Notes: generated by a model from the letters alone, not told the origin. A DNA stretch of 64,000 bases from Candidatus Aenigmatarchaeota archaeon (GCA_018304545.1 JAGVVZ010000002.1:99740-163739), one strand, 5' to 3'. Positions 11,344 through 36,987 are shown, counted from the first letter of the stretch. Translations and numbers: made by a program.

Positions 11344-11345
11344 TT

Positions 11346-12084: not shown

Positions 12085-13674
12085 ATGAAAACAAGAGACA
12101 AAAAATATTTACTAATATTAATTACGCTGTTAATAGGTTTCTTTTTAAGATCAATTATATTATGGCAAAATATAGAGATTCTAATTCAGAAAATTTTAAT
12201 TGATGACGCATTTATAGCATTCTCAATAGCTAAAAATATAGCAAATAAGAATTTGGTGTCATTTGATGGTGTTTCCATTACAAATGGTTTTCAGCCTTTA
12301 TGGGTATTCATAATAGCACCACTATTCAAGATCATACAAAATGATTCGGTAATACATTTAGTATTAACTGCATCTGCTATGCTAGATACATTAACAATAT
12401 TTTTAATGTATAGAATAGGAAGAATAATTTATAACCATAAAGTCGGTATATTGTGTTCTATAATTTACGCTATCAATCCGTTGTTTATATTTTTTACATT
12501 GAATGGTATAGAAGTATCATTAACTATTTTTTTAATAAACTTGAGTTTGTTATATTTATTTTCAATAAAAAATTTTACTTTTTTTAAATCTATATTACTT
12601 GGAACCATATTAGGCTTAACTATATTATCTCGTATGGACTCGGTTTTTCTTATCATAGGATCTTTTGCTTTTGTTATAATAAAATTTAGAAAAAACGCTT
12701 CACAAATATTTAAATATATCATAATAGTTGTCATAAGTATAATAATTGTAATATCCCCATGGTTTATTTGGAATTATATAAATTTTGAAACGTTTCTACC
12801 CAGTAGCGGTAAAGCTGTATATAAACTAGGGCACATGATATGCAATGTAAATAAATGTAATGACGCAGAACTAATAAATATATTAGTTAAGAACTTATCA
12901 ACTGGTATTTTTTTAATTATATATTATTTCGGTCCAATTAATATCACACCAATAAATATTATTTTAGCTATTTCTGTTGTATACTTCTTAGTTTCATCTA
13001 TAAAAAATAAAAATATTATTTTATTACCACAATTAACTTATGTGGGTTTTATATTGTTGTTTTATTCTCTATACATGTGGAGGTTGGATCTCAGATATTT
13101 TACAGCTTCTTCATCAATATTACTAGTAACGTTATGTGATGGTATATTCTTATTTGCTGAGGGTTTAAAAAACAACAAGCGTCTAGTGGCATCATTAATT
13201 TTCGCGATTTTACTAACTCAAATAATAATCAATGGTTATAAGGAATGGACAAGGGGTTATACACCATGGCAAACAATGATGTACGAAGGTAGTTTATGGA
13301 TAAAAAACAACACGGGGAAGGATGTTGTCGTTTCATCATTCAATAGTGGGTTAATACAGTATTATTCTCAAAGAAGAACTATCAATCTAGATGGTGTGAT
13401 AAACTTTGAAGCTATAAAATCAATAGAAAACAAAAACGTAACAGATTATATAAAATCTAAAAATTCCACTTACTTTTTAGATGCAATTTTAGATATAAAA
13501 AGTGATATTTCTGATAAAAATGCAGGATTGTGGGAAGTAAACTTGTGGACCTCTTACATGGGAAAAAACTATGAAAATTTTTTAAAAATAATAAAAACGG
13601 AAATGAGAGAATTTGAGACTGTTAGTGGGGATAATATGAAAGTTATATTTTTCATAGCACGAGTAATTAATTAA
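12085..13674 (+). CDS. GT-C-like integral membrane protein (putative lipid-linked-sugar glycosyltransferase)
   Basis: 529 aa, polytopic. LIDDAFIAFSIAKNIANK motif after TM1. C-terminal soluble region is ...WIKNNTGKDVVVSSFNSGLIQYYSQRRTINLDGVIN. Confidence 0.5.
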   Translation: MKTRDKKYLLILITLLIGFFLRSIILWQNIEILIQKILIDDAFIAFSIAKNIANKNLVSFDGVSITNGFQPLWVFIIAPLFKIIQNDSVIHLVLTASAMLDTLTIFLMYRIGRIIYNHKVGILCSIIYAINPLFIFFTLNGIEVSLTIFLINLSLLYLFSIKNFTFFKSILLGTILGLTILSRMDSVFLIIGSFAFVIIKFRKNASQIFKYIIIVVISIIIVISPWFIWNYINFETFLPSSGKAVYKLGHMICNVNKCNDAELINILVKNLSTGIFLIIYYFGPINITPINIILAISVVYFLVSSIKNKNIILLPQLTYVGFILLFYSLYMWRLDLRYFTASSSILLVTLCDGIFLFAEGLKNNKRLVASLIFAILLTQIIINGYKEWTRGYTPWQTMMYEGSLWIKNNTGKDVVVSSFNSGLIQYYSQRRTINLDGVINFEAIKSIENKNVTDYIKSKNSTYFLDAILDIKSDISDKNAGLWEVNLWTSYMGKNYENFLKIIKTEMREFETVSGDNMKVIFFIARVIN

Positions 13675-13706
13675 TACTTTAATACACTCACTTATTATGG
13701 ATAAAA

Positions 13707-15005
13707 ATGAAGACAATTTGTATAATAGGAGCAGGATCCGCGGGTTTAGCAGCAGCTTTGAAATTAAAGGAAATTGGATTTGATGTAACTATATTAGAAA
13801 AAGAAAATTATATAGGCGGATTGGCTTCTAGATATAAGATACTCTGGGATAGAAAAACATATTACATAAACAAAACTTATCATCACATACTAGAGGGAGA
13901 TTTTTACACAATAAAGATGATAAATGATTTCGGAATAAAAAATAAGTTTAAAAAAACGAAGGTAAAAACAGGTTTTGTGTATAAAAACAAAATATGGGGA
14001 TTATCTTCGCCGTTAGACATGATTAAGTTTCCTATACCTTTTTTAGATAAAATAAGACTTGTTTTTTTTATAATCACTTCTTCTATAAAACGGGATTGGA
14101 CTGATACTGAAAAAGTAAATGCAAGGGATTGGATAGTTAAAAGAGCTGGAAAAAACAATTATAATATAATTTTCGAAAAGTTAATAAGAAATAAATTTAA
14201 TAAACTCCCAGAACAAATTTCAGCCGCGTGGTTTGGTACAAGATTTGTTAGAGAATCTCAATCTTTTATGAAAAAATTTGGTTGGTTAGAAGGTGGCGGC
14301 GAAGGATTAATACTGGACTTGATAGCAAAAAAATTACGAAAATTAAATTGTAAAATTAAAACAAATATTCAGATAAAAAAAATTGATGTAAAAAACAAAA
14401 TAATCACATTTATATCTGATAATAATAAAATTGAAGAAAAATTTGATATTATATTAAGCACACTACCACCAGAAGTTTATATTAAATTAGCAACAATGAA
14501 AGATCATTCGGTAAAGTTAGAGGAAGGCTTTAAAAAAATAGAATATTTAAGTGTTATATGTGGTTGTATAGGACTCAAAAAAAAATATAGTAATTTTTAT
14601 TGGTTAAATGTTTTAGATAATTATCCGTTTAAAGTAATATTTACGAATAGCATTTTATATAAAGATTCTGCGCCAAAAAACAAAAGCAATATTTATTTGG
14701 CAACATATTTTAGCGGCGAAAATGAATTGTGGAATAAAAACGAAAATGAAATATTTGAAGTTTATATGAAATATTTAAAAATTATATTTAAAAATTGTGA
14801 AAAAAATGTGGATTGGTACAAAATAGTTAAATTCAAATACGCAGAAGCCATATTTGATCTACACTTCAAAAATCCACCTCTGTCAGATAGTGGTATTTAT
14901 TTCGCAGGAATTTTCAGAATATTCCCAAAAATAAGAAACGTTTCATCTGCTTTGGAATCAGGTTTTGAATCTGCTGATGCAATAATAAGTGATTTTAATG
15001 AGTAA
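13707..15005 (+). CDS. FAD/NAD(P)-binding oxidoreductase (amine-oxidase / PPOX / UGM-like fold)
   Basis: 432 aa. Dinucleotide-binding N-terminus is ICIIGAGSAGLAAALKLKEIGFDVTILEKENYIGGLA. Confidence 0.75.
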   Translation: MKTICIIGAGSAGLAAALKLKEIGFDVTILEKENYIGGLASRYKILWDRKTYYINKTYHHILEGDFYTIKMINDFGIKNKFKKTKVKTGFVYKNKIWGLSSPLDMIKFPIPFLDKIRLVFFIITSSIKRDWTDTEKVNARDWIVKRAGKNNYNIIFEKLIRNKFNKLPEQISAAWFGTRFVRESQSFMKKFGWLEGGGEGLILDLIAKKLRKLNCKIKTNIQIKKIDVKNKIITFISDNNKIEEKFDIILSTLPPEVYIKLATMKDHSVKLEEGFKKIEYLSVICGCIGLKKKYSNFYWLNVLDNYPFKVIFTNSILYKDSAPKNKSNIYLATYFSGENELWNKNENEIFEVYMKYLKIIFKNCEKNVDWYKIVKFKYAEAIFDLHFKNPPLSDSGIYFAGIFRIFPKIRNVSSALESGFESADAIISDFNE

Positions 15006-16080
15006 AATAGCATTTGTGAAAGTCAAACAGGAAAAAGACGGCGTACAAAAGGCTGTTAAAAGGGCAATGGAATTGACATTGTGGAAAAAATATGTAACTG
15101 GAAATAAAATATTTTTAAAAATAAATGGTATTTCAGATCAACTAGTACCGGGTCAATGCACATCACCATGGGTAGTTGAAACGGTTTTAAAAGAAGTTAA
15201 GAGGGTGTTTCCAAAAGCCGAGATTAAAATGGGTGATGCAGATCTAGCAGCCGCGAAACAATTAAATAGAGCTGCAAAATTATGGGGAATACTAGATATT
15301 GCAGAAAAATACGATACAGAATTCGTAAATATATCAGACGAAGAAACAGTAATGCAAAATATAAATGGTAAAATACTAAAAAATATGTTGGTTTCAAAAT
15401 CTGTTTTGGAAGCTGATACTATAATAAATTTGCCCATATTAAAATCTCATTGCCTCACTAAATTAACATGTTGTTTAAAAAATCATTGGGGATTGATACC
15501 AAGGGGGGTAAGGCACAATTACCATCCTCTAGTTAACCAAGTTATAGGAGATATTAACAATTATTTCAAAAAAACAACATATAATTTAGTAGACGGAACA
15601 ATCACGATGGAAGGTGATGCGCCCAGAACGGGTATACCAAAAATAACAAATGTCATATTTGCAGGAAATGACAGGGTAGCAATAGATACAATGGCTGCAA
15701 AATTTATGTGTCTAGATCCAAAAAAAATTAATCACATAAAATTTTCTGAAAAAATGGGTGTTGGATCAATGAAATATGAGATAATTGGAGATAAATTTTT
15801 TACAAACAAATTCGTTGAAGCTAAACCGAATAAACAACCTATATTTCTTCTTGAAATGAATTTTAGGAAAGTTCCCATATTAAAAGAAATTATATTTAAA
15901 ACAAAATTTTTCGATGTTTTTGCTTGGGGAACAAGACAATACAATTCTGTTATATGGTATAATTTAAAAGGCAAAAAAATGGCTGAAAATATTATATATA
16001 ATACGTGGTATGGGCAAGAATTTGAAAAACTCTGGAATAAAACTGGAAAAACTGGAAAATTACCTTCCAATAAGCTTTAA
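14989..16080 (+). CDS. DUF362-family protein
   Basis: 363 aa. ADTIINLPILKSHCLTKLTCCLKNHWG and VDGTITMEGDAP resemble DUF362. 17-nt overlap with the FAD enzyme gene. Confidence 0.55.
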   Translation: MILMSKIAFVKVKQEKDGVQKAVKRAMELTLWKKYVTGNKIFLKINGISDQLVPGQCTSPWVVETVLKEVKRVFPKAEIKMGDADLAAAKQLNRAAKLWGILDIAEKYDTEFVNISDEETVMQNINGKILKNMLVSKSVLEADTIINLPILKSHCLTKLTCCLKNHWGLIPRGVRHNYHPLVNQVIGDINNYFKKTTYNLVDGTITMEGDAPRTGIPKITNVIFAGNDRVAIDTMAAKFMCLDPKKINHIKFSEKMGVGSMKYEIIGDKFFTNKFVEAKPNKQPIFLLEMNFRKVPILKEIIFKTKFFDVFAWGTRQYNSVIWYNLKGKKMAENIIYNTWYGQEFEKLWNKTGKTGKLPSNKL

Positions 16081-20808: not shown

Positions 20809-22041
20809 ATGTTAGACATATTATTATTCTCTCTTTTAGGAATATTTGTTGGTATAGCAGTTGGTTTATTGCCGGGAATTCACCCGAACCAAATATACAT
20901 AATACTTGTTTCTATTTTGCCTCTTCTTAGTTTTTTATCTGAATGGGACTTGATCGCCTTTGTTTTATCTATATCCATTTCTAACGTAATATCAAACTAT
21001 ATACCAACTATATTCTTCTCTATACCAGATTCTAACACTGCTATCAATGTTTTACCAGGACATAAAATGGTATTAGAGGGCAGGGGGTTAGAAGCTTTGT
21101 ATATAAGTCTTATATCTGGAATTCTGACGTTATTAATTTCAACTCTTTTATTGCCAATTTTCCTCATTCTGATTCCCTTCTTATACGATAATCTACACAA
21201 TTATATTCATTTTTTATTGATTGGTTTGTTTTTAATTATGGCTTTTTTTGAAAAAGGAAATAAAAAATATTTTTTTATTTTAGTTTTCATTATTTCTGGT
21301 ATTTGGGGTATTATAACCTTGAACTCCCCTCTTATAAAATCTGAAAATGTTTTATTTCCCTCTCTAACGGGTATGTTCGGCTTAGCTGGTCTGTTAATAG
21401 AAAGGGGTGGCTTGAAAAAACTACCAACACAGAGGCAAATAATAGATAATATAAATAATGAAGGTTTTGTTAAGACCGTATCATCGGGTATAATAGCTGG
21501 TCTTTTGGTCGGTATATTACCAGGTGCGGGAGAAAGCCAAGCCGGCGTCCTAGTATCCCATACGATAAAATTATCAGATAAAGAGTTTTTAGGCACGTTA
21601 TCTGGTATAAATATGTCGAATTTACTGTTTTCAATTGTGTCTCTTTCTAGTTTAGAAAAAATAAGAAGCGGTACAGCACTAGCAATAAATGAAATTGTTT
21701 ATAACTTTAATACGGAATATCTGTTATTTTCCGTTGGAATACTAATATTTTCCGGGTCTTTATCTGTTATTTTTACTTGGTTTTTAGGAAAAAAGACGCT
21801 TCTTTTATTAAGTAAAATAAACTACGATCTAGTATCAAAAATTATAATATTATTCACGTGCACGTTAGTGTTGTTATTTACGGGTTTTTGGGGTTTTTTT
21901 ATCCTGATAATATCTATATTCATCGGTTTGTTGCCAATCTTATTTAAAATTAAAAGAACGAGTTGTATGGGATATCTGATGTTGTCAACAATAATTTATT
22001 TTTCTGGTTTAAGTAACGTGATTGGTTTTCTATTTTTATGA
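20809..22041 (+). CDS. TctA-family (DUF112) membrane transporter subunit
   Basis: 410 aa, polytopic. Repeated GLLPGIHPNQ / GILPGAGESQAG motifs typical of the TctA large subunit. Confidence 0.7.
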   Translation: MLDILLFSLLGIFVGIAVGLLPGIHPNQIYIILVSILPLLSFLSEWDLIAFVLSISISNVISNYIPTIFFSIPDSNTAINVLPGHKMVLEGRGLEALYISLISGILTLLISTLLLPIFLILIPFLYDNLHNYIHFLLIGLFLIMAFFEKGNKKYFFILVFIISGIWGIITLNSPLIKSENVLFPSLTGMFGLAGLLIERGGLKKLPTQRQIIDNINNEGFVKTVSSGIIAGLLVGILPGAGESQAGVLVSHTIKLSDKEFLGTLSGINMSNLLFSIVSLSSLEKIRSGTALAINEIVYNFNTEYLLFSVGILIFSGSLSVIFTWFLGKKTLLLLSKINYDLVSKIIILFTCTLVLLFTGFWGFFILIISIFIGLLPILFKIKRTSCMGYLMLSTIIYFSGLSNVIGFLFL

Positions 22042-22184: not shown

Positions 22185-24905
22185 TTAATATGGAATTTCG
22201 GAAGAAATGTAAATTTTTGACCTTTTTTCACCATCATAAAATAGTAAATCGCCATTACAAAAGTTACATTTTGCGGAAAGTGGTATTCTCCTAAAAATAT
22301 TATTACAATTTTCACAAATTACACCTTCTATATTTGTAAGAAATTTTTCATAACCGTTCTCTGCTGTTGTTTCATGCTTCATAGCATCAAAAATCCCCAT
22401 TTGTTTACCAATACCCATTAATTCAGATTTGTTAACATTAAGTGCTTCAAATACTCTTTCTAGAGGTGGTAATAATTGACTTTCTATATAATATTTAGAA
22501 TCGACTTTTATTCCGTGCTTCTTTGCATACTCGGGATCTTCGGCTCTTTTAGAAACCATACCAACTCCCTGAACTATTATGAAACCTATTCTATCTCCAA
22601 TACCAGGAACTGCTGTTGCGTCTCTTTTTTTCATTTTTCTAACCAATTCCACATGTGGTTGAACACCTTTATACGTTTTAAGGGATTTAGAAATGCTTTT
22701 AGTTATAACCAGCTTACTAATGTCCATTTTACCTGTTTTTATTTGTTCTATTTTATCTCTAACAAGTTTTAATGCCTTATTTATGTTTTGTTCCTTTAGA
22801 ACTACGTTAATAATTTCTTGGAGTGTTTCTGAAACTAAGTTACACCAGTCTCTTCTAACTGTTTCTATACCTTTAGTTACGATTGATTCTTCATATCCAG
22901 AAGACAGAGGTTCAAAATTCCAACCGGCATATCTTTTTTTGTTAAGAATTAAAAGTGTTTTGAATATACTCTCAATTTTTATTTTTAATATACCGTTTAA
23001 TTCATCATTCACAAGTTTGGATATTTCTTCACCTGTCTTAAATGCTTCACTTACTTCTTTAGTTTTAGTTTTGACCATGATAGAATCTGTATCCGCATAT
23101 ATTACTGTGTGGCCTGTTTTGGTTTCAACTATTAATTTTGTTTTACCTATCATTTCTCTACCAACGCCTGTTATTGTGTTGGCTATATCAATTACATACA
23201 ATCTGGCCCTTATGTACCCAGAATATCCATAAAAGGCATTAGCTATAGTTTTAAATGCGTATTGTTTAGCATAAAGATATCTTCTTCCTTCTTCTGATTT
23301 TTCGTTTTTCATTTCTTTTTTTAGTTTGTCTCTAGTAAAAATCAAATACTCGAGTATTTCTGGTATAACGCCCTTTCTGATTTTTGGCGAAACGAAAGAC
23401 GTTCCAAGACTTGTACTCATCTTATCAATATCAATATCTTTGATGAGTAGAGTTGTGGGGCATATATTAAATGACATCATAATACTGGGATACATGGATT
23501 TGAAATCCAAATAAACAACACATTTATCATGAAATCCTATTACTGGTTTTAACACAAATCCGCCTTTTAAACCGCCTTTTATTCTCTCTTCGTTCCTTTT
23601 GTATAATTGACTACTTTCCGGTTTACATGGTAAAACGAAATTCCTCTTATTGAATTCTTTCAAAAGTAAATTATCTATTCTAGCTGCTTCTCCACCATCC
23701 AGCACATCCTGCAAAACTAAGCCAGAAACTTTTGACATTTCAAAAAATTTATCAAGCATGTTTTTCTCAAATAGAATTCTTAACGGTAACTCTGCGTCTC
23801 TTCTACTATAATCAACCAATTTTTCAAATTTTTCACTATTGTCTGTCCAGAATTTTGATATTTCACTAGGTGAAACATCTATTTTACTCTCGCCCAAAAT
23901 TAATTTTGAAACGTCACCTAAACTAAATCTTTTTAATTCTCTATAAAGACCAAACTTTACAGTTGCTTCCTTAATCAAGTCGTATATATCTGCAACGACT
24001 CTGCCCGGAACAACTATTTTCTGTTTATTGGCGAATTTATCTATTCTAATAGGCTTCTGGGAACATCTACCCAAACTTCTACTTACATTATTTTTAATAA
24101 GTCTAGTATCTATAAAAGGCAGATCAAAATTTAAAATATTGTAACCCAAAATAATATCTGGATCAAAATTATCAATTATTTTTGTTAGTTCTACTAACAT
24201 GTCTTTCTCTGAGTCAAAATTCAATGTTCCGTCATATTTCTTAGTTCTCTTAGAAATTAAGACTAAACTGCTTTTCTCTTTATAAGTTGGATAGAAAACC
24301 AAACTTATCATAATAATAGCGTCTTTTTCTGGGTTTGGTAAACCACCTTCCGAGGAAACGGATTCTATATCAATGCTCAGATATTTAATTAAACTATTTT
24401 GATCTATATTTAATTCCTGAATAGAAGTCGCTTGAAATTTTTTTTCAGTTTTAGTTATATTTGTTCTTACGAATTCGCCTATGGCTCTATACCATTTCAT
24501 ACCGTATATATTAAAATCTGTCATAAATCTGTATTTGAATAAAATATCTGCTTCGAATATCTCTTTTACATTCACGTTTAATTTTAGATCTTCACGTATA
24601 TTTGGAACAATTGCTGGATTGTTTAATGTTATTTTAATCATATTTATTGGTTTATCATGAAACCCTATTGAAAGAGTTTTTTCCTTATTCTCTATTTTCA
24701 GTACAACATCTTTATGCTTTTTAGTAATATAATCTACAAGTTCTTTCTCTTTACCAAAATTTGGAAGTACATAAAAATAGGGAAGAAAATTATCAAAAAA
24801 TATAGTAACAGAAGAGTTATCTATAGCCCTACCAAAAATCCTTACTGTCGGCCTAGCGTTTGTCAGTACATAATCTACGTCCAATATTTGAAAGTCTAAT
24901 TCCAT
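22185..24905 (-). CDS. polB: Family B DNA polymerase with a C-terminal zinc-ribbon extension
   Basis: 906 aa. Exo I YLSIDIES, Exo II NILNFDLPF, Exo III YSRRDAEL. Pol A YLDFKSMYPS, Pol B KTIANAFYGY, Pol C IYADTDS. PIP-like KQMGIFDAM is followed by about 60 aa containing CENC-x12-CNFC (nt about 22257..22316). Confidence 0.95.
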   Translation of the reverse strand: MELDFQILDVDYVLTNARPTVRIFGRAIDNSSVTIFFDNFLPYFYVLPNFGKEKELVDYITKKHKDVVLKIENKEKTLSIGFHDKPINMIKITLNNPAIVPNIREDLKLNVNVKEIFEADILFKYRFMTDFNIYGMKWYRAIGEFVRTNITKTEKKFQATSIQELNIDQNSLIKYLSIDIESVSSEGGLPNPEKDAIIMISLVFYPTYKEKSSLVLISKRTKKYDGTLNFDSEKDMLVELTKIIDNFDPDIILGYNILNFDLPFIDTRLIKNNVSRSLGRCSQKPIRIDKFANKQKIVVPGRVVADIYDLIKEATVKFGLYRELKRFSLGDVSKLILGESKIDVSPSEISKFWTDNSEKFEKLVDYSRRDAELPLRILFEKNMLDKFFEMSKVSGLVLQDVLDGGEAARIDNLLLKEFNKRNFVLPCKPESSQLYKRNEERIKGGLKGGFVLKPVIGFHDKCVVYLDFKSMYPSIMMSFNICPTTLLIKDIDIDKMSTSLGTSFVSPKIRKGVIPEILEYLIFTRDKLKKEMKNEKSEEGRRYLYAKQYAFKTIANAFYGYSGYIRARLYVIDIANTITGVGREMIGKTKLIVETKTGHTVIYADTDSIMVKTKTKEVSEAFKTGEEISKLVNDELNGILKIKIESIFKTLLILNKKRYAGWNFEPLSSGYEESIVTKGIETVRRDWCNLVSETLQEIINVVLKEQNINKALKLVRDKIEQIKTGKMDISKLVITKSISKSLKTYKGVQPHVELVRKMKKRDATAVPGIGDRIGFIIVQGVGMVSKRAEDPEYAKKHGIKVDSKYYIESQLLPPLERVFEALNVNKSELMGIGKQMGIFDAMKHETTAENGYEKFLTNIEGVICENCNNIFRRIPLSAKCNFCNGDLLFYDGEKRSKIYISSEIPY

Positions 24906-24935
24906 AATATTAATATAACATATTGTTATTTAGGT

Positions 24936-25988
24936 TTACTCTATAAGAACGACTTCTCTTGATTTAAGATTCACATTATATATTTTATAATCGCTCACTG
25001 ATATTATACTCGTTCCTTTATAATTTTTGTAAATATGCGGCTCTATATTAGTAATCACAATATCTGGCAAGTCTGTCAAAACAAAGTCACTTTTGTCTGT
25101 ATTGAAAAGCTTGTTATTTTTAGGTAAAATGAATCTTCTTTTCAATAATTTCTCTATTTCATGTGAAGACAAATCAATCTGGTTTTTATCATAAAATATT
25201 TTTGGTAGAAATAAAATTTTTAAGTTATTAATGTTTATTAATGTTGGCTGATGAATTTCTTGTTGTACAAGTTTAGTCATAAGTTCATTATTCTTTATGC
25301 TTTCAAATAGTTCGTTTTTATCAAAATAAAAATAAAAATCAATTTTCATATTTTCTATCACTTCAAAGTTAACAAATCCATCAGGAAGGAATAACATATT
25401 AATATTTTTTTCTAATCGATTCACGTTTCTGTCTATTCTAACATCTGGATAATATATGTTTTCTAAATAAAATTTAGAATCTATACGTCTACATTTAAGT
25501 CCAAGTACATCATCTGAATCAATATCAATTATTTTATCTTTTAATTTAGACTCGAAATATATTTCAATTTCACCTGTCATATCCTCAACAAGCAATTGGT
25601 TTTGTAATTTGTCTCTTATTATACCTATTATAGAAAATTCGGTTGTTTTGGGATTTATTTTGTTGATGGAAATTAACCTTTCCAAATTGTTGTTTTCTTG
25701 TATTATCTTACTTATTTTTTCATATTTTATTACATAACTTTTGGCGAATTCGTCTATCTTTAGCTGTTTTTTGTCGAAAAAATATGTTTTTAAAATACTT
25801 ATTGTAAGTTTTTCGGATTTAATTTTTATTTTATTTATGTGATCTTGAGTTATTATAAATGGACGCGGATTTAATCTATTCATTTCCTCGATAATAAAAT
25901 GTGGTTCCGAAACAACCAAAGGCAAAGCATCTTTTGATATTTGAAATCCTTTCTCCAGAAATAGTTTAATTGTTTCCTTATCGTCCAT
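24936..25988 (-). CDS. PolD small-subunit (DP1)-like protein: N-terminal helical module + OB fold + shortened phosphoesterase-like domain lacking the metal-ligand motifs
   Basis: 350 aa. IKLFLEKGFQISKDALPLVV (DP1-type N-terminus). OB fold FSIIGIIRDK..LLVEDMTGEIEIYFE..DDVLGLKCRR..IYYPDV. DP1 landmarks LLKRRFILP and LPDIVITN are kept, but D-x-H, G-D-x-x-D, G-N-H-D and G-H-x-H are not recognisable. The start overlaps the cdc6 stop. Confidence 0.6.
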   Translation of the reverse strand: MDDKETIKLFLEKGFQISKDALPLVVSEPHFIIEEMNRLNPRPFIITQDHINKIKIKSEKLTISILKTYFFDKKQLKIDEFAKSYVIKYEKISKIIQENNNLERLISINKINPKTTEFSIIGIIRDKLQNQLLVEDMTGEIEIYFESKLKDKIIDIDSDDVLGLKCRRIDSKFYLENIYYPDVRIDRNVNRLEKNINMLFLPDGFVNFEVIENMKIDFYFYFDKNELFESIKNNELMTKLVQQEIHQPTLININNLKILFLPKIFYDKNQIDLSSHEIEKLLKRRFILPKNNKLFNTDKSDFVLTDLPDIVITNIEPHIYKNYKGTSIISVSDYKIYNVNLKSREVVLIE

Positions 25989-27196
25989 CAGATCACTAAA
26001 TCATGATCAAGTATATCTCTAATTTTTTCTTTCGCTGGCTGAGAAACACTTAATTTTATTTCACGAGTTCGACCATATCTACCTAAAGAAACTATTTTAG
26101 CGTTTATTATACCTGTCATATCTAATTCGGATATTAAATCTGATATTCTTCTTTGAGTTAGTGGATACAAACCAGTTTCCTTGCATTTATTTTCATAAAT
26201 TCCGTAAACATCTCCGGTTTGTATATCTTCTCTTTTTTGATCAACTAATTGAATAGTAGACCATAAAACAACTTTAGTTTGTTTAGGAAGAGATTTTACA
26301 GACTCAACTATTCTATCATAATCTATCTTATCCTGAGCTATATCGACATGTTTCTCTGTTATTTTTGGTTCGCTGTTTCTCTCAACTATTTCACCTGCAA
26401 CCCTGAGAAGATCTAATGCTCTTCTAGCATCACCATGCTCTTGAGCTGCAAGCGCCGCGCATTTTGGAATAACTTCCTCCGATAATATGTAATTATGAAA
26501 GCCAATTTCTGCCCTATGTTTTAATATGTCTTGTAGTTCCAGAGCGTTGTATGGTGGAAACAAAAGCTCTTCTTCACTTAAAGAGCTTTTCACACGAGGA
26601 TCTAAAATATCTATAAAGTGAAGATCGTTTGTTATACCCATAATAGCTACCTTTGCTTTTTTTAGTTCCTGGTTTATTCTCGTAAAATTATAAAGAAAGC
26701 TGTCGCCCATTTTTTCTACAAGAGTGTCTACCTCGTCTAAAATCACAATAACAACCCACTCTCTGGAATCAATTATATTAAAAAATGTTTGATACACCGT
26801 TTCTGTGGGTAAACCTGTTGCGGGAATATCTTCACCCAAAAGCCTAATCAGTTCCGCTACAAGTCTATATTCCGTATCTGCGACTTTTTTCATTTTACAA
26901 TTTATATAAAGCACTTTGACGAGATTGGTGCCTTGATGGGACATCTTTTCCAGTTCCTCGCCTATATATTTTGCGCACAGGGTTTTTCCTGTACCCGTCA
27001 ATCCGTAAATAAAAATATTTGACGGCCTGCCACCTTTCAAAGAGGGTGCAACAATAGAAGCTAACGTATTTATTTGTTCATTCCTGTGTGGTATTGTTTC
27101 TGGGGCAAAGTGTGATGTTAATGCGTCTCTATTCTTAAAAACGGGTGTTGATTTTGTGATAAATTCCTGGAAAATGGTTTGAATATTACGAGACAT
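25988..27196 (-). CDS. cdc6: Orc1/Cdc6 replication initiator
   Basis: 402 aa. Walker A GLTGTGKT, Walker B VVIVILDEVD, sensor region GDARRALDLLR, C-terminal winged helix. Confidence 0.95.
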   Translation of the reverse strand: MSRNIQTIFQEFITKSTPVFKNRDALTSHFAPETIPHRNEQINTLASIVAPSLKGGRPSNIFIYGLTGTGKTLCAKYIGEELEKMSHQGTNLVKVLYINCKMKKVADTEYRLVAELIRLLGEDIPATGLPTETVYQTFFNIIDSREWVVIVILDEVDTLVEKMGDSFLYNFTRINQELKKAKVAIMGITNDLHFIDILDPRVKSSLSEEELLFPPYNALELQDILKHRAEIGFHNYILSEEVIPKCAALAAQEHGDARRALDLLRVAGEIVERNSEPKITEKHVDIAQDKIDYDRIVESVKSLPKQTKVVLWSTIQLVDQKREDIQTGDVYGIYENKCKETGLYPLTQRRISDLISELDMTGIINAKIVSLGRYGRTREIKLSVSQPAKEKIRDILDHDLVI

Positions 27197-27257
27197 AATA
27201 CTTATTTTTCCTATTGAAATAAAGCTTTTTCTATTGGAAAATATATAAACACCCTCA

Positions 27258-27277
27258 CCCCCCTGTTTCCATTGTAG
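27258..27277. promoter_or_regulatory. Origin recognition box ORB-L (C-string + TGTTTCC core)
   Basis: cccccctgtttccattgtag. Its reverse complement ctacaatggaaacagggggg matches the archaeal ORB pattern GGAAAC...GGGG (G-string). Confidence 0.7.
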
Positions 27278-27470
27278 ACTTAATATATAACTATTTAGAG
27301 AATATAACAGTATTATAATTATTTAACTACTTTAAAATGATTAAATATTTAACACGAAATTTAACAAAAAGGGTTAACAAGATCAAAACACAGAACATAT
27401 ATCAATTTATATTAAATTATTTCCTCATGTCTCAACGAAAACATAAAACAATATAAAAATTATTTTTATA

Positions 27471-27490
27471 CTACATAGGAAACAGGGGGG
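27471..27490. promoter_or_regulatory. Origin recognition box ORB-R (inverted relative to ORB-L)
   Basis: ctacataggaaacagggggg. It abuts the stop codon of the phosphoesterase gene at 27491. Confidence 0.7.
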
Positions 27491-28183
27491 TCAGCCCTGT
27501 TTTTCTGTAAGATTAAACACGTTTCCTTCTGCTAAACCGTCTTTTATTGTTATTAACCCAAAATATCCCTCAGATATTCTCCCAGGATTTAATAGCAATG
27601 TGTTTCCTATACGGTCTACGCCTCTAGCTTCATGAATGTGAGCAGAAACACTGGCAAGAGGCCTCTTTGTTTCTATAAATTCTCTTATGGTCTTAGAACC
27701 CACATGTGTACCAGTAGAAACCATATCCAGTCTTGTGTTTAATGGGGGCATATGTGTTAGCTGTATTTTCTTTGTCACGTCTTTTATATCATTCCATCCT
27801 TTTTCTAAATTAGTTTTTAATTCTTCTTCTGTTGGTTCTATTGTCGTGTTGAATGGAGTTTTAGCTCCCCCATATCCATAAAAACCCACATCTTTCAACA
27901 TCACGCCTTTGCCATGTATGCTTATACCCTCTTTTTTTATAATATCTATTACTTTAACGGTGTCATTATTTCCTGGTACGGCAAAAACAGGTTTTTTTAA
28001 CGTTTTTAACTCTTCGATGATCAGCAAAGCTATTTCTTCTTGCGAAAACCCCTTGGGTGTTGTAACATCTGTGAAGTCCCCGGTATATAGTATGGCCTCA
28101 AAACTGAATTTTTTGAGTTTTTCTAAAAAAACTAACATATTTTCTATATCATTATGATTATCCCCGATTACTATCAAATTCAT
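27491..28183 (-). CDS. Calcineurin-like metallophosphoesterase
   Basis: 230 aa. IVIGDNHND, YTGDFTD, VPGNND, LTHMPP, SAHIHEA motifs. Confidence 0.85.
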   Translation of the reverse strand: MNLIVIGDNHNDIENMLVFLEKLKKFSFEAILYTGDFTDVTTPKGFSQEEIALLIIEELKTLKKPVFAVPGNNDTVKVIDIIKKEGISIHGKGVMLKDVGFYGYGGAKTPFNTTIEPTEEELKTNLEKGWNDIKDVTKKIQLTHMPPLNTRLDMVSTGTHVGSKTIREFIETKRPLASVSAHIHEARGVDRIGNTLLLNPGRISEGYFGLITIKDGLAEGNVFNLTEKQG

Positions 28184-28191: not shown

Positions 28192-28494
28192 TTATAATAT
28201 CTGTATTACAAAATCTTTTTTATTTTTGAATTTAAACCACATTTCAACAGGTATCCTATGTTCTTCTCCCAACTTCTTTATTAAATCTATTTGTTCTTTC
28301 TCTCTAGACCTTGGGTAATATTTGTTTTTTTTGGTACCCTTTACTTCAACTATTTTTTCTATTTTGTCTTCATTTGGTTTAAGTATAATATAATCTGACG
28401 ATTGTCCTATACTCATTTTTATTACATTTTGTCTTCCATATTTTTTAATCAATTCTTTTTTGGCCAAATATTCCGAATAATAACCTTTTCTCAT
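28192..28494 (-). CDS. hjc: Holliday junction resolvase Hjc-like PD-(D/E)xK nuclease
   Basis: 100 aa. MRKGYYSEYLAKKELIKKYG..SSDYIILK..KIVEVKGTKK..RIPVEMWFKF aligns by eye with Pyrococcus Hjc (RKG, E, D, E-V-K). Confidence 0.65.
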   Translation of the reverse strand: MRKGYYSEYLAKKELIKKYGRQNVIKMSIGQSSDYIILKPNEDKIEKIVEVKGTKKNKYYPRSREKEQIDLIKKLGEEHRIPVEMWFKFKNKKDFVIQIL

Positions 28495-28544
28495 TAGATC
28501 ATAATATTATTAAATATCTATAAAAATAAATTGAATTGATTATT

Positions 28545-29117
28545 ATGAAAAAAATAAGATCAATATTTAGCAAGATTTTTTCTAAAAACAACATTTTGGT
28601 TAAAGATATAATGACAAAAAACCCCTTAAGGATAGACTGGCAGGAAAGTACACAAAAAGCAGCTAAAATGATGTCAGAACACAGAGTAGGGACAGTTATA
28701 GTTTTAAAAAACAATAAACCTATAGGTATTTTAACTGACACAGATCTCACTAAAAGAATAGTCGCTTTATGTAAAGACCCCAAAAAAATTAAAGTTTCTC
28801 AAATAATGACAACGCCTCTGATTTTTTCTTCACCTAGCGACAAAATCACAGACGTAGTTTTTAAAATGAAAAAACACAGAATAAAAAGAATACCGATTAT
28901 TGATAATAGAAGTCTTGTTGGTGTTTTAACAACCACGGATATCGCTAGAAACGTGCCTGAAATGATGGAATTACTCGAAGCTAGATTGCTTATGAGGGAA
29001 AACCCACCAACATTTGAGGAGTCTATCACATCTGGTGTTTGTGAAATCTGCGGAAATTATTCTGATAACCTTGTTTTTGAAAATGATGAATGGGCATGCG
29101 AAGATTGTAAAGAATAG
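28545..29117 (+). CDS. CBS-domain pair protein with C-terminal zinc ribbon
   Basis: Start set to ATG 28545. Two CBS repeats (VKDIMTKNP.., VSQIMTTPL..) and CEICGNYSDNLVFENDEWACEDC. Confidence 0.8.
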   Translation: MKKIRSIFSKIFSKNNILVKDIMTKNPLRIDWQESTQKAAKMMSEHRVGTVIVLKNNKPIGILTDTDLTKRIVALCKDPKKIKVSQIMTTPLIFSSPSDKITDVVFKMKKHRIKRIPIIDNRSLVGVLTTTDIARNVPEMMELLEARLLMRENPPTFEESITSGVCEICGNYSDNLVFENDEWACEDCKE

Positions 29118-29151: not shown

Positions 29152-29955
29152 ATGGAATTATTGAACCAAATTGTAGATATAGGAAAACCAGTTATTTATT
29201 ATTCAAATACTAATCCTGAATTTGTTAATTATAACAACTCAATATATGAAGTTATTGAGAAGATATCTAAAACTGGTTATAGAAGATTTCCTGTATTGAA
29301 AATTAAAAAATTCCCAATTAAAAAAAACAACGTTTTGGGTGTAGTGACTGTGATGGATATATTAGATGCTTTCCTTAGGAACGTTGATTTTAACTCACCT
29401 ATTTCACTTATAATGTCCAGAGATATTATCACGTGTAGGTATTATGAACCACTTGAAATTGTTATAAAAAGATTCAAATTTGCTAGAAGAGGCGGATTTC
29501 CAGTCGTAGATGATAAAATGAATTTAAAAGGACTAGTAACCGAACACGATATTGTAGATTTATTTAAGGATTATGTATCACATATTCACGTTAAAGATAT
29601 AATGACAAGAAAACCATTCTATATATCACAAAACAACTTTTATAACTGTTTGAATTCTATAATTAATACTAAATATAGAAAATTGCCGATCGTTGAAAAT
29701 AAAAAATTATGTGGTCTTATTACTGATAGATTATGTCTTGATATACTAAAAAAATGTAAATATCAAAAAGATAACCTTCATTTTTCGGTTAGTGACATTA
29801 TGATAAAAAAAATACTTACAATAAATGAAGAAAGCGATGTTAAAGATGCTATAGAATTGATGAAAAATAGTAGATGTGGCGGTTTAATTGTAACTGATGA
29901 TGATATATTAAAAGGTATTATAACAGAAAGAGATATACTAGATAGAGTGTTATAA
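29152..29955 (+). CDS. CBS-domain protein (four CBS repeats)
   Basis: 267 aa with four CBS-like repeats (e.g. SLIMSRDIITC, VKDIMTRKPFYIS, VSDIMIKKILTIN). Confidence 0.8.
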   Translation: MELLNQIVDIGKPVIYYSNTNPEFVNYNNSIYEVIEKISKTGYRRFPVLKIKKFPIKKNNVLGVVTVMDILDAFLRNVDFNSPISLIMSRDIITCRYYEPLEIVIKRFKFARRGGFPVVDDKMNLKGLVTEHDIVDLFKDYVSHIHVKDIMTRKPFYISQNNFYNCLNSIINTKYRKLPIVENKKLCGLITDRLCLDILKKCKYQKDNLHFSVSDIMIKKILTINEESDVKDAIELMKNSRCGGLIVTDDDILKGIITERDILDRVL

Positions 29956-30373
29956 TGTTGTTAAATGAAGAAAAATTTATTGATCTGGCGAGTGAATATT
30001 TGACAATAGTTAAAGGTAATAAACATGGTGCATCTTTGAATAATCTGAGTTTAAATAATATAATTAACATATCTGGTAGTGAAATAGAAAGCTTCAGTGA
30101 TAAATTATCAGAAAAAGCAAATATATAGTGCTAACAGATTTTGATTGCGAAGGAGAAAACGAAAAACAAAAGATTTATAAATTTTTTGATAAAATTAGAA
30201 TTAGATTTAATCATAACCTTAGATTAAAATTCAAAAACATCTTTAAGGTGATTAAAATAGAAGAAATTAAAAAAAATTCAACCACAATGGAGGATGATTA
30301 TAATGGCAAAATTAGCTCAATCAACAATAAAATATTTGATAGAAGCAGATTTCTCCGCGAACGGAGTAGTTGA
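29955..30373 (+). pseudogene. Small Toprim-domain protein (COG1658-like) split into two frames at an (AT)n tract; active-site Glu replaced
   Basis: Frame 1 (29955..30128): ...EYLTIVKGNKHGASLNNL...KANI*. Frame 2 from GTG 30128: VLTDFDCEGENEKQKIYKFF... (the Toprim D-x-D-x-x-G part). Removing 2 nt in gcaaATATATAgtg would join them. The tail overlaps dnaG. Confidence 0.4.
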
Positions 30374-31430
30374 AAAACCCGATGTTATAGGCGCTATTTT
30401 TGGTCAAACAGAGGGTTTATTAGGGCAAGATCTTGATTTAAGAGAACTACAAAGAACGGGCAGGATAGGAAGAATTGAGGTTAATTTAAAGGAAGATAAA
30501 GGAACAACATCAGGGACTATTCAAATACCATCAAGTTTAGATGCATCAGAAACGTCACTTATAGCAGCTGCTGTAGAAACGATAGAGAGAATAGGTCCTT
30601 GTGAATCTTCTATTAAACTTAGAGCTATTAAGGATATACGAATGGTTAAGAGGGATTATGTTGTAGATAGAGCAAAAGAGATTCTACAAAAACTACTAGA
30701 AGAAATACCAGAAACGGATCATCTTACAGAAACTGTTAAAGAATCTGTTAGGATATCGGAAATAGCAGAATATAATGGTCTTGAATGTGGTCCAGATATT
30801 CCTGACTCAAATGAAATAATCGTAGTTGAGGGTAGAGCTGATGTAATTAATCTTTTGAAAAATGGTATCAAGAATGCTGTAGCTGTTGGTGGCACGACAG
30901 TATCCAAAGAGTTAATAGATTTTTGTCAAGACAGAATAGTTACACTGTTTTTGGATGGAGATAGAGGCGGCGATTTAATACTAAAAGAGTTGAGCCAATT
31001 AATCCCAATAAGAGATGTTGTTAGAGCTCCTGATGGCAAAGAAGTGGAAGAACTAACAAAGAAAGAAATATACAAGGCATTAAGGACTAAAAATTTAGTT
31101 GAAAAACCCCGATATAAAAAACGCGAAGATTTGGATGAAAGAATGAAAGAAAAAATATCTAATACATTGGATAGAATGATAGGTACAAAAGCGGTCTACA
31201 TTTTTGATGATAAGATGAAAATTGTTGGCAAGATACCATTGAGCAGATTTACTAAAGAAAATAAAGATTTAGAAAATGCTAAAATAGTTTTGGTAGATTC
31301 TTCTATTGACGACAATATGATAGAAATTGCGGATCATAATAACATAAGTTACTTAATAGGAGAGAGTCTAGAAAATAAAACAAAACCGAAAAGAGTTAGA
31401 ACTTACACAAAAACAGAATTAAACAATTAA
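30303..31430 (+). CDS. dnaG: Archaeal DnaG primase-like Toprim protein
   Basis: Start set to ATG 30303, 8 nt after GGAGGA. TIKYLIEADFSANGVVEKPDVIGAIFGQTEGLLG. Toprim motifs IIVVEGRADVINL and LFLDGDRGGDLI. Confidence 0.9.
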   Translation: MAKLAQSTIKYLIEADFSANGVVEKPDVIGAIFGQTEGLLGQDLDLRELQRTGRIGRIEVNLKEDKGTTSGTIQIPSSLDASETSLIAAAVETIERIGPCESSIKLRAIKDIRMVKRDYVVDRAKEILQKLLEEIPETDHLTETVKESVRISEIAEYNGLECGPDIPDSNEIIVVEGRADVINLLKNGIKNAVAVGGTTVSKELIDFCQDRIVTLFLDGDRGGDLILKELSQLIPIRDVVRAPDGKEVEELTKKEIYKALRTKNLVEKPRYKKREDLDERMKEKISNTLDRMIGTKAVYIFDDKMKIVGKIPLSRFTKENKDLENAKIVLVDSSIDDNMIEIADHNNISYLIGESLENKTKPKRVRTYTKTELNN

Positions 31431-34842: not shown

Positions 34843-36987
34843 TTGAGTGATTTAGTGGATAATTATTTGATAACAAAAAAAATACTCGAAATTTTTAATA
34901 TAAAAAACCTGAATCCAGTTCAAAATGAAGCTATACATAAGGATTTATTAGATAAAAAAAATTTAATAATTTCATCCCCAACAGCTAGTGGAAAAACTCT
35001 TTGTGCTATAACAGCTAGTTTAAAATGTCACGTTACTGAGAGAAAGAAAGTTTTGTACTTGTGTCCTTTAGTTGCGTTAGCTCAAGAACATTATGATAAT
35101 TTTAAAAATAAATTCTCTCAACTAGGAATAAAAATTGCTTTGTCTATAGGAGACCTTGATAATTCCGATCAAAGGCTAAGAGATTATGACTGGATAATTT
35201 GTAGTAATGAAAAAATGGATAGTTTGCTAAGACACGGAATTGAATGGATAAATGATGTTGGTTTAGTTGTTGTTGATGAAATACATTTGATTTCAGATTA
35301 TTCTAGAGGACCAACGTTAGAAATATTGCTAACAAAATTGAAATTGATGATACCAAAAGCCCAAATAGTAGGCTTGAGTGCAACAATTAATAACATTAAA
35401 GAACTATCCGAATGGCTAGACTCTGATTTTATTGTTAGTTCTTGGAGGCCAGTTAAATTGTATGAAGGGGTTTCTTACGATGGAAAAATTAATTTTTTAG
35501 AAAAAAGGGATTACTATTTATCTTCTAATATATCTGACGAAAAATCAATTGTTGAAGACACATTAAATATGAAAAAACAGATTCTGATTTTTGTATCAAC
35601 TAGAAGAAACGCAGAATCTTTAGCTGAAAAATTAAGTATTTTTGTTAATGAAAAAAATTTAAACACTGAAAAAACAGAGTTGAATAACATCTCACTTTCT
35701 GTATTGAATGCTTTAGAAATACCAACTATTCAATGTGAAAAACTATCTAAATGTGTTGATAATGGAATTGCGTTTCATCATGCCGGTCTTGTAAGTGAAC
35801 AAAGAAAAATAATCGAGAACGGATTTCGTGAAGGAAAAATAAAAGTTATAGTGGCAACACCAACGTTGTCCATGGGTATAAATTTACCTGCATTTAGAGT
35901 CATAGTCAGAGATTTGAGGAGATACTATACTGGTTTAGGTTCTATGTTAATCCCAGTTATTGAGTATAAGCAATTTGTAGGTAGAGCAGGAAGACCACAA
36001 TATGATGAATTTGGGGAATCAATTATATTTGCTAGAAACGAATTACAAGCTCAAGAGTTAATTGATAAGTATATTTTATCTGACACGGAAGATATAGAGT
36101 CTAAACTTTCAGACGAGTCTGCGCTTAGATCACATGTCTTATCTCTTATAGCATCTAATTTTGTTAAAAATATGGATGAATTGAAAGATTTTTTTAAAAA
36201 AACATTTTATTATCATCAAAAAAACAATTTGTTTGGAATAGATAAAAAAATAGATAGAATAATAAAATTACTTATAAAATTTGATCAAATAAAAAATTCA
36301 AAAAATAATTTAGAAGCAACAAAAATAGGAAAAAGAATATCAGAACTTTATTTGGATCCATTGTCTGGTCATATTATAACCTCTAATCTAAGAGAAAACG
36401 CAGATATAATAGGATTTTTGCAACTTGCTATAATTACACCAGAATTTGATCCATTACCTTCTATACGGTCTGGTGAAACAGAAATTTTAGAAAAATTTTT
36501 AATCAAAAACGGTAAAAAATTTTTAATCAAAATACCAGACGAATGGGATAGTAGCTATGACAATTTCTTAAAATCCGTGAAACTAACTACAATTTTTTAT
36601 GATTGGTTGAATGAAATATCAGAAAATCAAATTTTGATAAAATATAATATAACTCCAGGTGAACTTAGAAATAAATTGTTAATTGCAGACTGGTTGTTTT
36701 ATTCTATTTACGAATTATGTTTACTTTTAAAAATGAAAATTATTTTATCCCATATAAAAAAAATTAGAATTAGATTAAGATATGGTATAAAAGAAGAATT
36801 AATCCCTCTAGTTAAATTACAAAGTATAGGTAGGGTCAGAGCTAGAAGATTGTATAATTCCAATATTAAAGATATAGGAGATTTAAGAAAAATCGATATC
36901 AGTAAATTGACTAAAATTCTTGGAGAAAAAATAGCGTTTAGTATAAAAAAACAATTGGGCGAAAAGACGCAAAATAATAAAATTTAG
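34843..36987 (+). CDS. hel308: Hel308/Hjm (Ski2-like) DNA helicase
   Basis: 714 aa. SSPTASGKT, VVVDEIH, SAT, FHHAGL, VATPTLSMGINLPA, QFVGRAGRPQYD. C-terminal HhH-like SIGRVRARRLY. Confidence 0.9.
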   Translation: MSDLVDNYLITKKILEIFNIKNLNPVQNEAIHKDLLDKKNLIISSPTASGKTLCAITASLKCHVTERKKVLYLCPLVALAQEHYDNFKNKFSQLGIKIALSIGDLDNSDQRLRDYDWIICSNEKMDSLLRHGIEWINDVGLVVVDEIHLISDYSRGPTLEILLTKLKLMIPKAQIVGLSATINNIKELSEWLDSDFIVSSWRPVKLYEGVSYDGKINFLEKRDYYLSSNISDEKSIVEDTLNMKKQILIFVSTRRNAESLAEKLSIFVNEKNLNTEKTELNNISLSVLNALEIPTIQCEKLSKCVDNGIAFHHAGLVSEQRKIIENGFREGKIKVIVATPTLSMGINLPAFRVIVRDLRRYYTGLGSMLIPVIEYKQFVGRAGRPQYDEFGESIIFARNELQAQELIDKYILSDTEDIESKLSDESALRSHVLSLIASNFVKNMDELKDFFKKTFYYHQKNNLFGIDKKIDRIIKLLIKFDQIKNSKNNLEATKIGKRISELYLDPLSGHIITSNLRENADIIGFLQLAIITPEFDPLPSIRSGETEILEKFLIKNGKKFLIKIPDEWDSSYDNFLKSVKLTTIFYDWLNEISENQILIKYNITPGELRNKLLIADWLFYSIYELCLLLKMKIILSHIKKIRIRLRYGIKEELIPLVKLQSIGRVRARRLYNSNIKDIGDLRKIDISKLTKILGEKIAFSIKKQLGEKTQNNKI

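Follow-up and report, generated by a model that had tools for sequence, protein, structure and literature searches.

An orc1, DP1-like, and PolB unit beside a putative replication origin in an Aenigmatarchaeota genome probably encodes a PolB/B-subunit replicase

Introduction

Group B6 of the archaeal B-family DNA polymerases (PolBs) was described by Kazlauskas et al. in 2020, and the C-terminal domain of its B6-aenigma1 members was traced to the Zn-III module of DP2 (PMC7544198). The same study found that most Aenigmarchaeota have no DP2, described an inactivated Aenigma clade of DP1, and proposed that a B6-aenigma1 PolB had replaced DP2 (PMC7544198). A 2025 paper in Nature Ecology & Evolution also reported that Aenigmatarchaeota have kept DP1 and lack DP2. 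It presented AlphaFold3 models and yeast two-hybrid data in which DP1 binds the PolB that carries a DP2 C-terminal domain (PolB-DP2CTD), in both clades concerned, Aenigmatarchaeota and Baldrarchaeia (PMC12680538). Here, we analyzed a 64,000-nucleotide (nt) stretch of the chromosome of a DPANN archaeon, Candidatus Aenigmatarchaeota archaeon. We refer to this whole stretch as the window. It contains the gene for the replication initiator Orc1/Cdc6, a gene for a DP1-like protein of 350 amino acids (aa), and a PolB gene, which appear to form one minus-strand unit directly downstream of a putative oriC. We find it highly likely that this unit encodes the PolB/B-subunit replicase of Aenigmatarchaeota, a two-subunit enzyme.

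The arrangement of a PolB with a dead DP1 is already known. It was described in 2020 (PMC7544198), and support for the interaction followed in 2025 (PMC12680538). The window agrees with the described Aenigmatarchaeota PolB-DP2CTD, or B6-aenigma1, system in its phylum, in a PolB of about 900 aa that is nearest the Pol delta-like clade, in a single Cys4 motif nearest DP2 Zn-III, in a DP1 without active-site motifs, and in having no DP2 nearby. There is no essential difference, and the window comes from another genome of the described kind. The PolB3-DP2CTD and DP1 of Baldrarchaeia are phylogenetically related to this system and resemble it, because a PolB is fused to the DP2 C-terminal domain, DP1 is kept, and DP2 is lost. 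They differ in the C-terminal domain, which is eukaryote-like and of full length in Baldrarchaeia but degenerate and shorter in Aenigmatarchaeota (PMC12680538).

Two more distant systems can be compared with the locus. The archaeal PolD of Pyrococcus abyssi (6HMS and 6T8H) has the same small-subunit fold and domain order, a homologous Zn-III ribbon, and a position next to orc1, as seen in the canonical DP1/DP2 locus L013 described below. However, the catalytic body in the window is a B-family polymerase and not a double-psi-beta-barrel DP2, and the predicted dead DP1 is without the motif III region. DP2 also has a helical bundle and a C-terminal PCNA-interacting peptide (PIP) after Zn-III, whereas the PIP-like box of the window PolB precedes the ribbon. 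Eukaryotic Pol delta likewise combines an active proofreading PolB with a dead DP1 homologue. It is the best match of the window PolB, its p50 subunit is the best eukaryotic match of the DP1-like protein, and the order of thumb, PIP-like motif, and Cys4 is collinear with yeast Pol3. In contrast to Pol delta, the window PolB has one Cys4 motif and not two, and it has neither the helical pair or bundle nor an Fe-S-type CysB. In addition, its B subunit is about 100 aa shorter, and third and fourth subunits are not evident.

Term searches of the main texts of the two papers (PMC7544198 and PMC12680538) found no mention of an operon, the gene neighborhood, or Orc1 in this context. Neither main text mentions the flanks shared with an orc1-DP1-DP2 locus or DP1 relatives that have metal ligands. 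The window may thus add the origin-proximal synteny, including its match to an orc1-DP1-DP2-TctA locus, the ligand-keeping DP1 relatives with their gradient of decay, the extreme shrinkage of the phosphoesterase domain, and the collinearity of the PolB tail with the PIP and CysA of Pol3.

Results

Gene layout of the unit

The features of the unit are listed in Table 1. An earlier reading of the window, made from the DNA sequence alone (the original prediction), had placed orc1, the 350-aa open reading frame (ORF), and PolB in this order. The ORFs matched its gene order and coordinates exactly, and all of the peptides that it quoted were found in the translations (IKLFLEKGFQISKDALPLVV, FSIIGIIRDK, LLVEDMTGEIEIYFE, LLKRRFILP, LPDIVITN, FLPDGFVNF, NIEPH, KQMGIFDAM, and CENC-x12-CNFC). 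The orc1 product passed the NCBIfam ORC1 equivalog model with 523 bits, against a cutoff of 501. The TGA of orc1 and the ATG of the 350-aa ORF have one base in common ('tgatc TGATG gac'). This TGATG overlap suggests that the DP1-like gene is translationally coupled to orc1. The gap between the DP1-like and PolB genes is 30 nt ('TAA acctaaataacaatatgttatattaatatt ATG'). A scan for sigma-70 promoters and intrinsic terminators gave counts at the level of shuffled sequence; such a scan is uninformative for an archaeon.

Table 1. Features of the orc1, DP1-like, and PolB unit and of the putative origin upstream of it
Feature	Residues (aa)	Window position (nt)	Strand	Basis
Putative oriC; inverted origin recognition box (ORB)-like boxes 27254-27287 and 27461-27494, core GGAAACAGGGGGGT		27254..27494	.	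Inverted-repeat scan, pattern search, direct reading
orc1/cdc6, replication initiator, first gene of the unit	402 in total	25988..27196	-	NCBIfam NF001625 (ORC1-type); Pfam Cdc6_C, Cdc6_lid, AAA
DP1/B-subunit homologue, shortened and predicted inactive	350 in total	24936..25988	-	NCBIfam DP1, AlphaFold2, Foldseek, alignments
N-terminal helical module of the DP1-like protein	1-45		-	Domain layout of the DP1-like protein
OB (oligonucleotide/oligosaccharide-binding) fold of the DP1-like protein	~101-185	25434-25688	-	Domain layout of the DP1-like protein
Reduced phosphoesterase-like domain without metal ligands	186-350	24939-25433	-	Domain layout of the DP1-like protein
PolB, B-family DNA polymerase	906 in total	22185..24905	-	Pfam DNA_pol_B (2.5e-110), exo1 (1.7e-32)
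PIP-like box KQMGIFDAM of PolB (candidate)	834-842	22380..22406	-	Alignment, pLDDT, conservation
C-terminal domain of PolB	851-906	22188..22355	-	Profile against PDB, Cys conservation, AlphaFold2
Cys4 zinc ribbon of PolB	C864, C867, C880, C883	22257-22316	-	Invariant in 32/32 sequences

The comparison drew on 10 GTDB loci found through the DP1-like family (L001 to L010), two additional divergent loci (L011 and L012), and a canonical DP1/DP2 locus (L013).

Identity and fold of the DP1-like protein

The original prediction had assigned the 350-aa protein the layout of DP1, the PolD small subunit. A Pfam search of the protein gave no match at all, including to PF04042; its relative P0071 does match PF04042. 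With Pfam alone silent, the assignment had to come from NCBIfam, profile searches, and structure prediction. The NCBIfam DP1 model matched aa 1 to 203 with an E value of 1.8e-17; the score of 63.5 bits is far under the cutoff of 445. In the PDB, a profile of the DP1-like alignment, which contains four canonical DP1s, matched DP1 chains (5.5e-46), and the match extended from the N-terminal part through to the C terminus.

The AlphaFold2 model of the protein, computed from a 28-sequence alignment, had a mean predicted local distance difference test score (pLDDT) of 85.4 and a predicted template modeling score (pTM) of 0.78. When this model was compared with the PDB by Foldseek, the best match was P. 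abyssi DP1 (9f2a_A; E value of 1.7e-18, TMq of about 0.62). Next came human Pol delta p50 (6tny_B; 5.6e-14), and then the B subunits of Pol epsilon, Pol zeta (Pol31), and Pol alpha. These matches to DP1 and the B subunits spanned about 400 alignment columns with a probability of 1.00. The model has the domain order of the DP1/B-subunit superfamily, with an N-terminal helical module, an OB fold, and a calcineurin-like phosphoesterase fold, and the layout had thus been recognized correctly. Both sequence and model indicate that the 350-aa protein is a DP1/B-subunit homologue.

The protein belongs to a sizable family. A database search with it returned 83 clusters of proteins of 315 to 400 aa whose source names are mostly Aenigmarchaeota or Aenigmatarchaeota, and many of these relatives are annotated by JGI as 'DNA polymerase II small subunit/delta subunit B'. 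An exhaustive HMMER search found 154 clusters (50% identity) at an E value of 1e-10 or below, and nearly all of the best 150 are 280 to 415 aa long.

Loss of the phosphoesterase ligands

An active DP1, which is a 3'-5' exonuclease, has phosphoesterase motifs I to V with Asp, His, and Asn ligands. In an alignment with canonical DP1s, all five motifs are gone from the 350-aa protein. Motif I, SD(V/I)H(I/V)GS, is reduced to PD followed by five gaps. Motif II, GDxxDG, reads FYFDKN, and the motif III region, G(Q/N)HD, is deleted. Motif IV, YHG, is replaced by LPK (in FLPKIF), and motif V, G(D/H)xH, by a gap and NIE (in T-NIEP). At most one of the eight scored ligand or catalytic positions is left, the Asp of motif I. 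Therefore, two expectations from the bare sequence held up in real alignments: the metal ligands are lost, and the phosphoesterase domain is shorter than in DP1, with the motif III region missing. Because its metal ligands are lost, the DP1-like protein is predicted to be catalytically dead and to be a structural B subunit only.

The loss is not uniform across the family. We scored the eight positions in 208 aligned sequences, comprising 204 short members of at least 280 aa and four canonical DP1 controls. Zero or one position was kept in 163 of the 204 short members, and five or more were kept in 12. Two relatives, P0072 and P0076 (392 to 398 aa), pass the Pfam Metallophos_2 model with 49 and 40 bits. 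P0072 (L012, 1403..2599) keeps the metal ligands of motifs I to V (SDIH / GD / GN / H / GHFH). Its gene has orc1 on one side and, on the other, a 900-aa PolB whose tail shows the same CxxC-x12-CxxC pattern. We suggest that a P0072-type locus is possibly an intermediate with two proofreading nucleases.

Such decay could mean that the 350-aa gene is a functionless DP1 relic left after the loss of PolD. The DP1-like protein evolves far faster than its neighbors, with 35% identity compared to 72% for orc1 and 60% for PolB. The phosphoesterase domain also shrinks progressively, with DP1-like proteins of 315 aa at some loci and one of 280 aa in L010, and the first half of the domain remnant is poorly conserved (mean column conservation of 0.37). 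However, all 12 loci have an intact ORF, and the family comprises more than 150 diverged clusters. Across 24 members that are 36 to 63% identical to the window protein, 17 residues are invariant, including those of the SINK, ED, PD, and KNYKG motifs. The fold is predicted with confidence, the gene is probably coupled in translation to orc1, and an interaction with PolB has been published (PMC12680538). A functionless relic is therefore very improbable. The invariant residues, the intact ORFs, and the 154 clusters suggest that the DP1-like protein is still under constraint despite its inactivation.

The PolB catalytic body

The Exo I to III and Pol A to C residues of PolB are invariant in 32 homologues (D179/E181; N256/F260/D261; Y366/D370; D467/Y472; K552/N556/Y559/G560; and Y603/D605/T606/D607), and the motifs are intact, as originally predicted. 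PolB is thus expected to be active, with its own 3'-5' proofreading exonuclease. Its best PDB relatives by sequence were Pol delta catalytic subunits (1.8e-104, compared to about 1e-98 for Thermococcales PolB). These were also the best relatives by fold (6.1e-66, TMq of 0.80). PolB therefore seems closest to Pol delta, where the best PDB match serves as a proxy for placement in group B6, the sister group of the eukaryotic Delta-like clade. It can be assigned to the Aenigmatarchaeota PolBs that bear a DP2-derived C-terminal domain. The PolB homologue of L010 (8864..12778) is 1304 aa long and has an intein-like insert of about 400 aa in its Pol C motif, between ...VLYGDS and HNTDSIF...; its DP1-like partner is the 280-aa protein.

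The PolB tail

KQMGIFDAM falls where the chain of P. abyssi PolB stops in the PDB ('TKQVG' in P. abyssi, 'GKQMG' in the window). The linker at aa 833 to 850 is predicted to be flexible, with AlphaFold2 pLDDT block means of 33 to 40 over aa 831 to 850. In the 32-homologue alignment, G833 never varies, and conservation of Q835 is 90% or higher. Immediately ahead of the ribbon there is another PIP-like stretch, ENGYEKFL (22317..22361, PolB aa 849 to 863), for which the family consensus is (E/K)xxFEDYL. This stretch aligns with GGLMSFI of yeast Pol3, which we take to be the PIP of that protein, and the PolB ribbon aligns with Pol3 CysA. The PCNA-binding motif would be KQMGIFDAM or ENGYEKFL, if either, and both are candidates.

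Beyond the linker, aa 851 to 900 are modeled as a small beta module with a pLDDT of 71 to 82, that is, as an ordered module on a disordered tether. The CxxC-x12-CxxC pattern is present in 117 of 120 PolB homologues, and in the remaining three the second pair is a CxC variant. We searched the PDB with a profile of the tail. The sole significant matches were to DP2 Zn-III, namely 6knb_B residues 1129 to 1157 (E value of 4.9e-8) and P. abyssi DP2 6hms_B residues 1121 to 1149 (8.8e-7, aligned to FICNKCNKIFRRVPLIGKCNSCNGEILF). Compared with the DPANN-like DP2 of L013, the PolB ribbon is identical at 13 of 26 positions (50%). In PolD, DP1 is bound by the C-terminal region of DP2, which includes Zn-III. 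Judging from these similarities, the PolB ribbon derives from DP2 Zn-III and is not a generic zinc ribbon, and the PolB C-terminal domain is presumably the part that docks with the DP1-like subunit.

The original prediction had compared this tail to the Cys-rich C-terminal domains of eukaryotic polymerases. The zinc ribbon itself stood up, as CENC-x12-CNFC proved to be related to DP2 Zn-III. A full eukaryote-like domain with CysA and CysB did not. The last 73 residues contain no Cys beyond the single Cys4 motif, so the two Cys4 modules of a eukaryote-type domain are not present. The ribbon is followed by a short beta tail of only 23 residues, and the model has only short strands after aa 850, with no helical bundle that could pack on a B subunit. 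The DP2 of L013 extends beyond Zn-III by about 55 residues, which are helical, and ends in a PIP. From its sequence, the PolB C-terminal domain is thus best described as what probably remains of the DP2 C-terminal domain, in degenerate form and with a single motif.

Several observations weigh against a replicase held together by this ribbon. In DP2 and the eukaryotic polymerases, the C-terminal domain is much larger than here, where it has one Cys4 motif and about 23 residues after it. Because the interface helical bundle of the solved complexes is missing, the binding mode may differ. In our alignment, the tail is collinear with the PIP and CysA region of yeast Pol3, and in Pol delta it is PCNA, and not the B subunit, that this region contacts. 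For the Aenigmatarchaeota C-terminal domain, 'a different predicted structure' has been noted (PMC12680538). Moreover, a DP2, a second DP1, or a second PolB may be present elsewhere in the genome, of which our own data cover 64 kb.

The small size of the C-terminal domain and its collinearity with Pol3 also speak for a different division of labor. The DP1-like protein might be mainly an adaptor to GINS/CMG, primase, or PCNA, and the PolB ribbon might bind PCNA or DNA as the CysA of Pol delta does, so that the two proteins would be co-expressed without forming a stable ribbon heterodimer. It also fits that the N-terminal helical module is the best-kept part of the DP1-like protein (mean column conservation of 0.64), and that the N-terminal module of eukaryotic B subunits binds other replisome factors. 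However, the ribbon sequence is much nearer DP2 Zn-III than any CysA. The C-terminal half of the dead phosphoesterase domain is conserved, including KNYKG, LKRR, and PD, and a yeast two-hybrid interaction between an Aenigmatarchaeota DP1 and a PolB bearing the C-terminal domain has been reported (PMC12680538). In addition, an adaptor role and PolB binding can coexist. We therefore consider it unlikely that the DP1-like protein acts mainly as an adaptor in place of forming a heterodimer, and we favor docking of PolB on the DP1-like subunit through the ribbon.

Synteny and co-occurrence

The orc1, DP1-like, and PolB genes are collinear in 10 of 10 GTDB loci, seven of which are named Aenigmatarchaeota and three 'uncultured archaeon'. 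Identity to the window proteins across these loci is 55 to 99% for orc1, 22 to 95% for the DP1-like protein, and 39 to 96% for PolB. In L011 and L012, the gene after the DP1-like gene encodes a 900-aa PolB that has the same ribbon. Thus, the DP1-like gene adjoins a PolB with the tail in all 12 loci examined, and the tail and the short DP1-like gene occur together, as expected if the two proteins are partners in the way originally predicted. Where the source of these 12 loci is named, it is Aenigmatarchaeota. The homologues of both proteins have mostly Aenigmarchaeota or Aenigmatarchaeota as taxon names, along with a few NCBI names of bacterial phyla (Planctomycetota, WOR-3, and Omnitrophica) or simply 'archaeon'. 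In L011, no orc1 was called; the stretch at 6825..7985, between a metallophosphoesterase gene and the DP1-like gene, contains just three small ORFs, of 119, 75, and 85 aa. In this locus, orc1 may have been lost, moved, or degraded.

The closest canonical DP1s lie in loci with DP2. In Pyrococcus, the gene order is oriC-cdc6-DP1-DP2. Locus L013 (1032..9561) contains an orc1 that is 52% identical to that of the window, a 523-aa DP1, an 1169-aa DP2, and, further on, a convergent TctA gene. The L013 TctA is 33% identical to the window TctA at 20809..22041. The window order is orc1, DP1-like, PolB, and convergent TctA, and the flanks are thus the same as in L013. These shared orc1 and TctA flanks point to a replacement of DP2 in place. 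Within the 64-kb window, no ORF is longer than 906 aa, and there was no PolC_DP2 match among the ORFs scanned.

The flanks also bear on the origin of PolB, which could have come from an integrated mobile element or could be a repair polymerase, and in neither case a chromosomal replicase. The B6 PolB may originally stem from a mobile element (PMC7544198), and one homologue, that of L010, has the intein-like insert. However, PolB occupies the slot of DP2, between orc1-DP1 and TctA and adjoining oriC. Its flanks are housekeeping genes, with no integrase, capsid, or other element gene nearby. The GC content of the region matches that of its surroundings, and the position is conserved across the phylum. 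On the basis of the housekeeping flanks, the conserved position, and the unremarkable GC content, we rejected an integrated mobile element, and we regard a PolB outside chromosomal replication as exceedingly improbable.

The putative origin

The two ORB-like boxes form an inverted repeat with 34-nt arms and 79% complementarity, and an AT-rich spacer of 173 nt separates them. Both ORB-like elements lie on the upstream side of orc1, in the 294-nt spacer that separates it from the metallophosphoesterase gene. A pattern search of the window with the core GGAAACAGGGGGGT gave two matches, compared to 0.19 expected by chance. Inverted ORBs, a G-string, and an AT-rich unwinding element make up the classical layout of an archaeal origin, and the site in the window follows this layout. 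Degenerate searches and inverted-repeat scans of the related loci found similar ORB-like pairs upstream of orc1 in L002 and L004 only, and the exact ORB core was found in none of these loci. Conservation of the origin layout is therefore apparent for some relatives only. With the inverted ORB-like pair directly upstream of orc1, it is reasonable to call the unit origin-proximal, which agrees with the position first proposed for it; the oriC itself is putative.

Neighboring genes

The metallophosphoesterase gene upstream of orc1 (27491..28183, minus strand) encodes a 230-aa calcineurin-like protein, and its terminus is inside the distal ORB box. Its motifs are intact (GDNHND, GDFTD, GNND, and HIHE), and the protein is YfcE/aq_1956-like. 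By tblastn, the gene is found at the same place upstream of orc1 in 8 of 10 GTDB loci, the exceptions being L001, where the contig ends, and L010; it was also called in L011. We considered whether this protein is the split-off nuclease domain of DP1. This was rejected, because the protein is of the YfcE/aq_1956 type and has no similarity to canonical DP1 (E value of 0.24).

Further from orc1, two genes for CBS-domain proteins (28536..29117 and 29152..29955, both plus strand) adjoin the origin region. The first protein has a C-terminal CxxC...CxxC zinc ribbon. The CBS protein with the ribbon is also found upstream of orc1 in L009 and L010, and L011 has a pair of CBS-domain genes at this position. 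A 100-aa ORF (28192..28494, minus strand) lies between the metallophosphoesterase and CBS-domain genes and has no Pfam or NCBIfam match. At the corresponding position, L011 has a gene for a 108-aa Hjc, a Holliday junction resolvase.

Genes of DNA metabolism lie within about 30 kb of the origin, at 30294..31430, 34843..36987, 41400..42377, and 52584..55215. They encode an archaeal DnaG, a Hel308-type helicase, a DHH/DHHA1 (RecJ/GAN-like) protein, and subunits A and B of topoisomerase VI. At the other end of the window, positions 1..16000 hold a large glycosyltransferase and PMT_2 cell surface cluster with a GC content of 22 to 28%, compared to 30 to 36% in the remainder. This low-GC cluster is possibly a variable glycosylation island or one acquired horizontally.

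Discussion

The enzyme that very probably arises from the orc1, DP1-like, and PolB unit would be built as follows. The catalytic subunit would be a Pol delta-like PolB with its own proofreading exonuclease, in which the thumb leads through a flexible linker with a PIP-like box to a Cys4 ribbon from DP2 Zn-III. The second subunit would be a DP1 homologue composed of an N-terminal helical module, an OB fold, and a trimmed phosphoesterase scaffold, with a structural role only. The zinc ribbon would dock PolB onto the dead DP1, as the DP2 C-terminal domain docks on DP1 in PolD. Pol alpha, delta, and epsilon likewise dock on their own B subunits via their C-terminal domains. The B subunit presumably ties the polymerase to other parts of the replisome. 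We infer that the enzyme is the main replicase, and that the PIP-like box is functional.

The original prediction was that a PolB has taken the place of DP2 and docks on a dead DP1 through its ribbon. Our analysis supports it, with the interaction and the absence of DP2 drawn from the literature (PMC7544198 and PMC12680538).

As for how the unit arose, one possible scenario, which we offer tentatively, is a swap in place. The ancestral order would have been oriC-orc1-DP1-DP2-...-TctA. The body of DP2 would then have been replaced by a Pol delta-like PolB, with Zn-III kept as a docking module. The DP1 nuclease would have been lost only afterwards, and survivors of the P0072 type would be the two-proofreader intermediates. 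If true, this scenario would provide a stepwise, locus-resolved model of the change from a PolD-type enzyme to a eukaryote-type PolB/B-subunit holoenzyme.

The arrangement would be an archaeal counterpart of Pol alpha, delta, and epsilon, in which an active PolB uses a Cys-rich module at its C terminus as an anchor on a dead DP1 homologue. In the literature, it serves as evidence that the eukaryotic replicases arose from PolD and PolB parts (PMC7544198 and PMC12680538). The window is one more instance of this arrangement and brings no new concept. It is useful still, because it offers locus-level evidence for the replacement of DP2 in place, and because the ligand-keeping DP1 relatives could help to date the loss of the nuclease.

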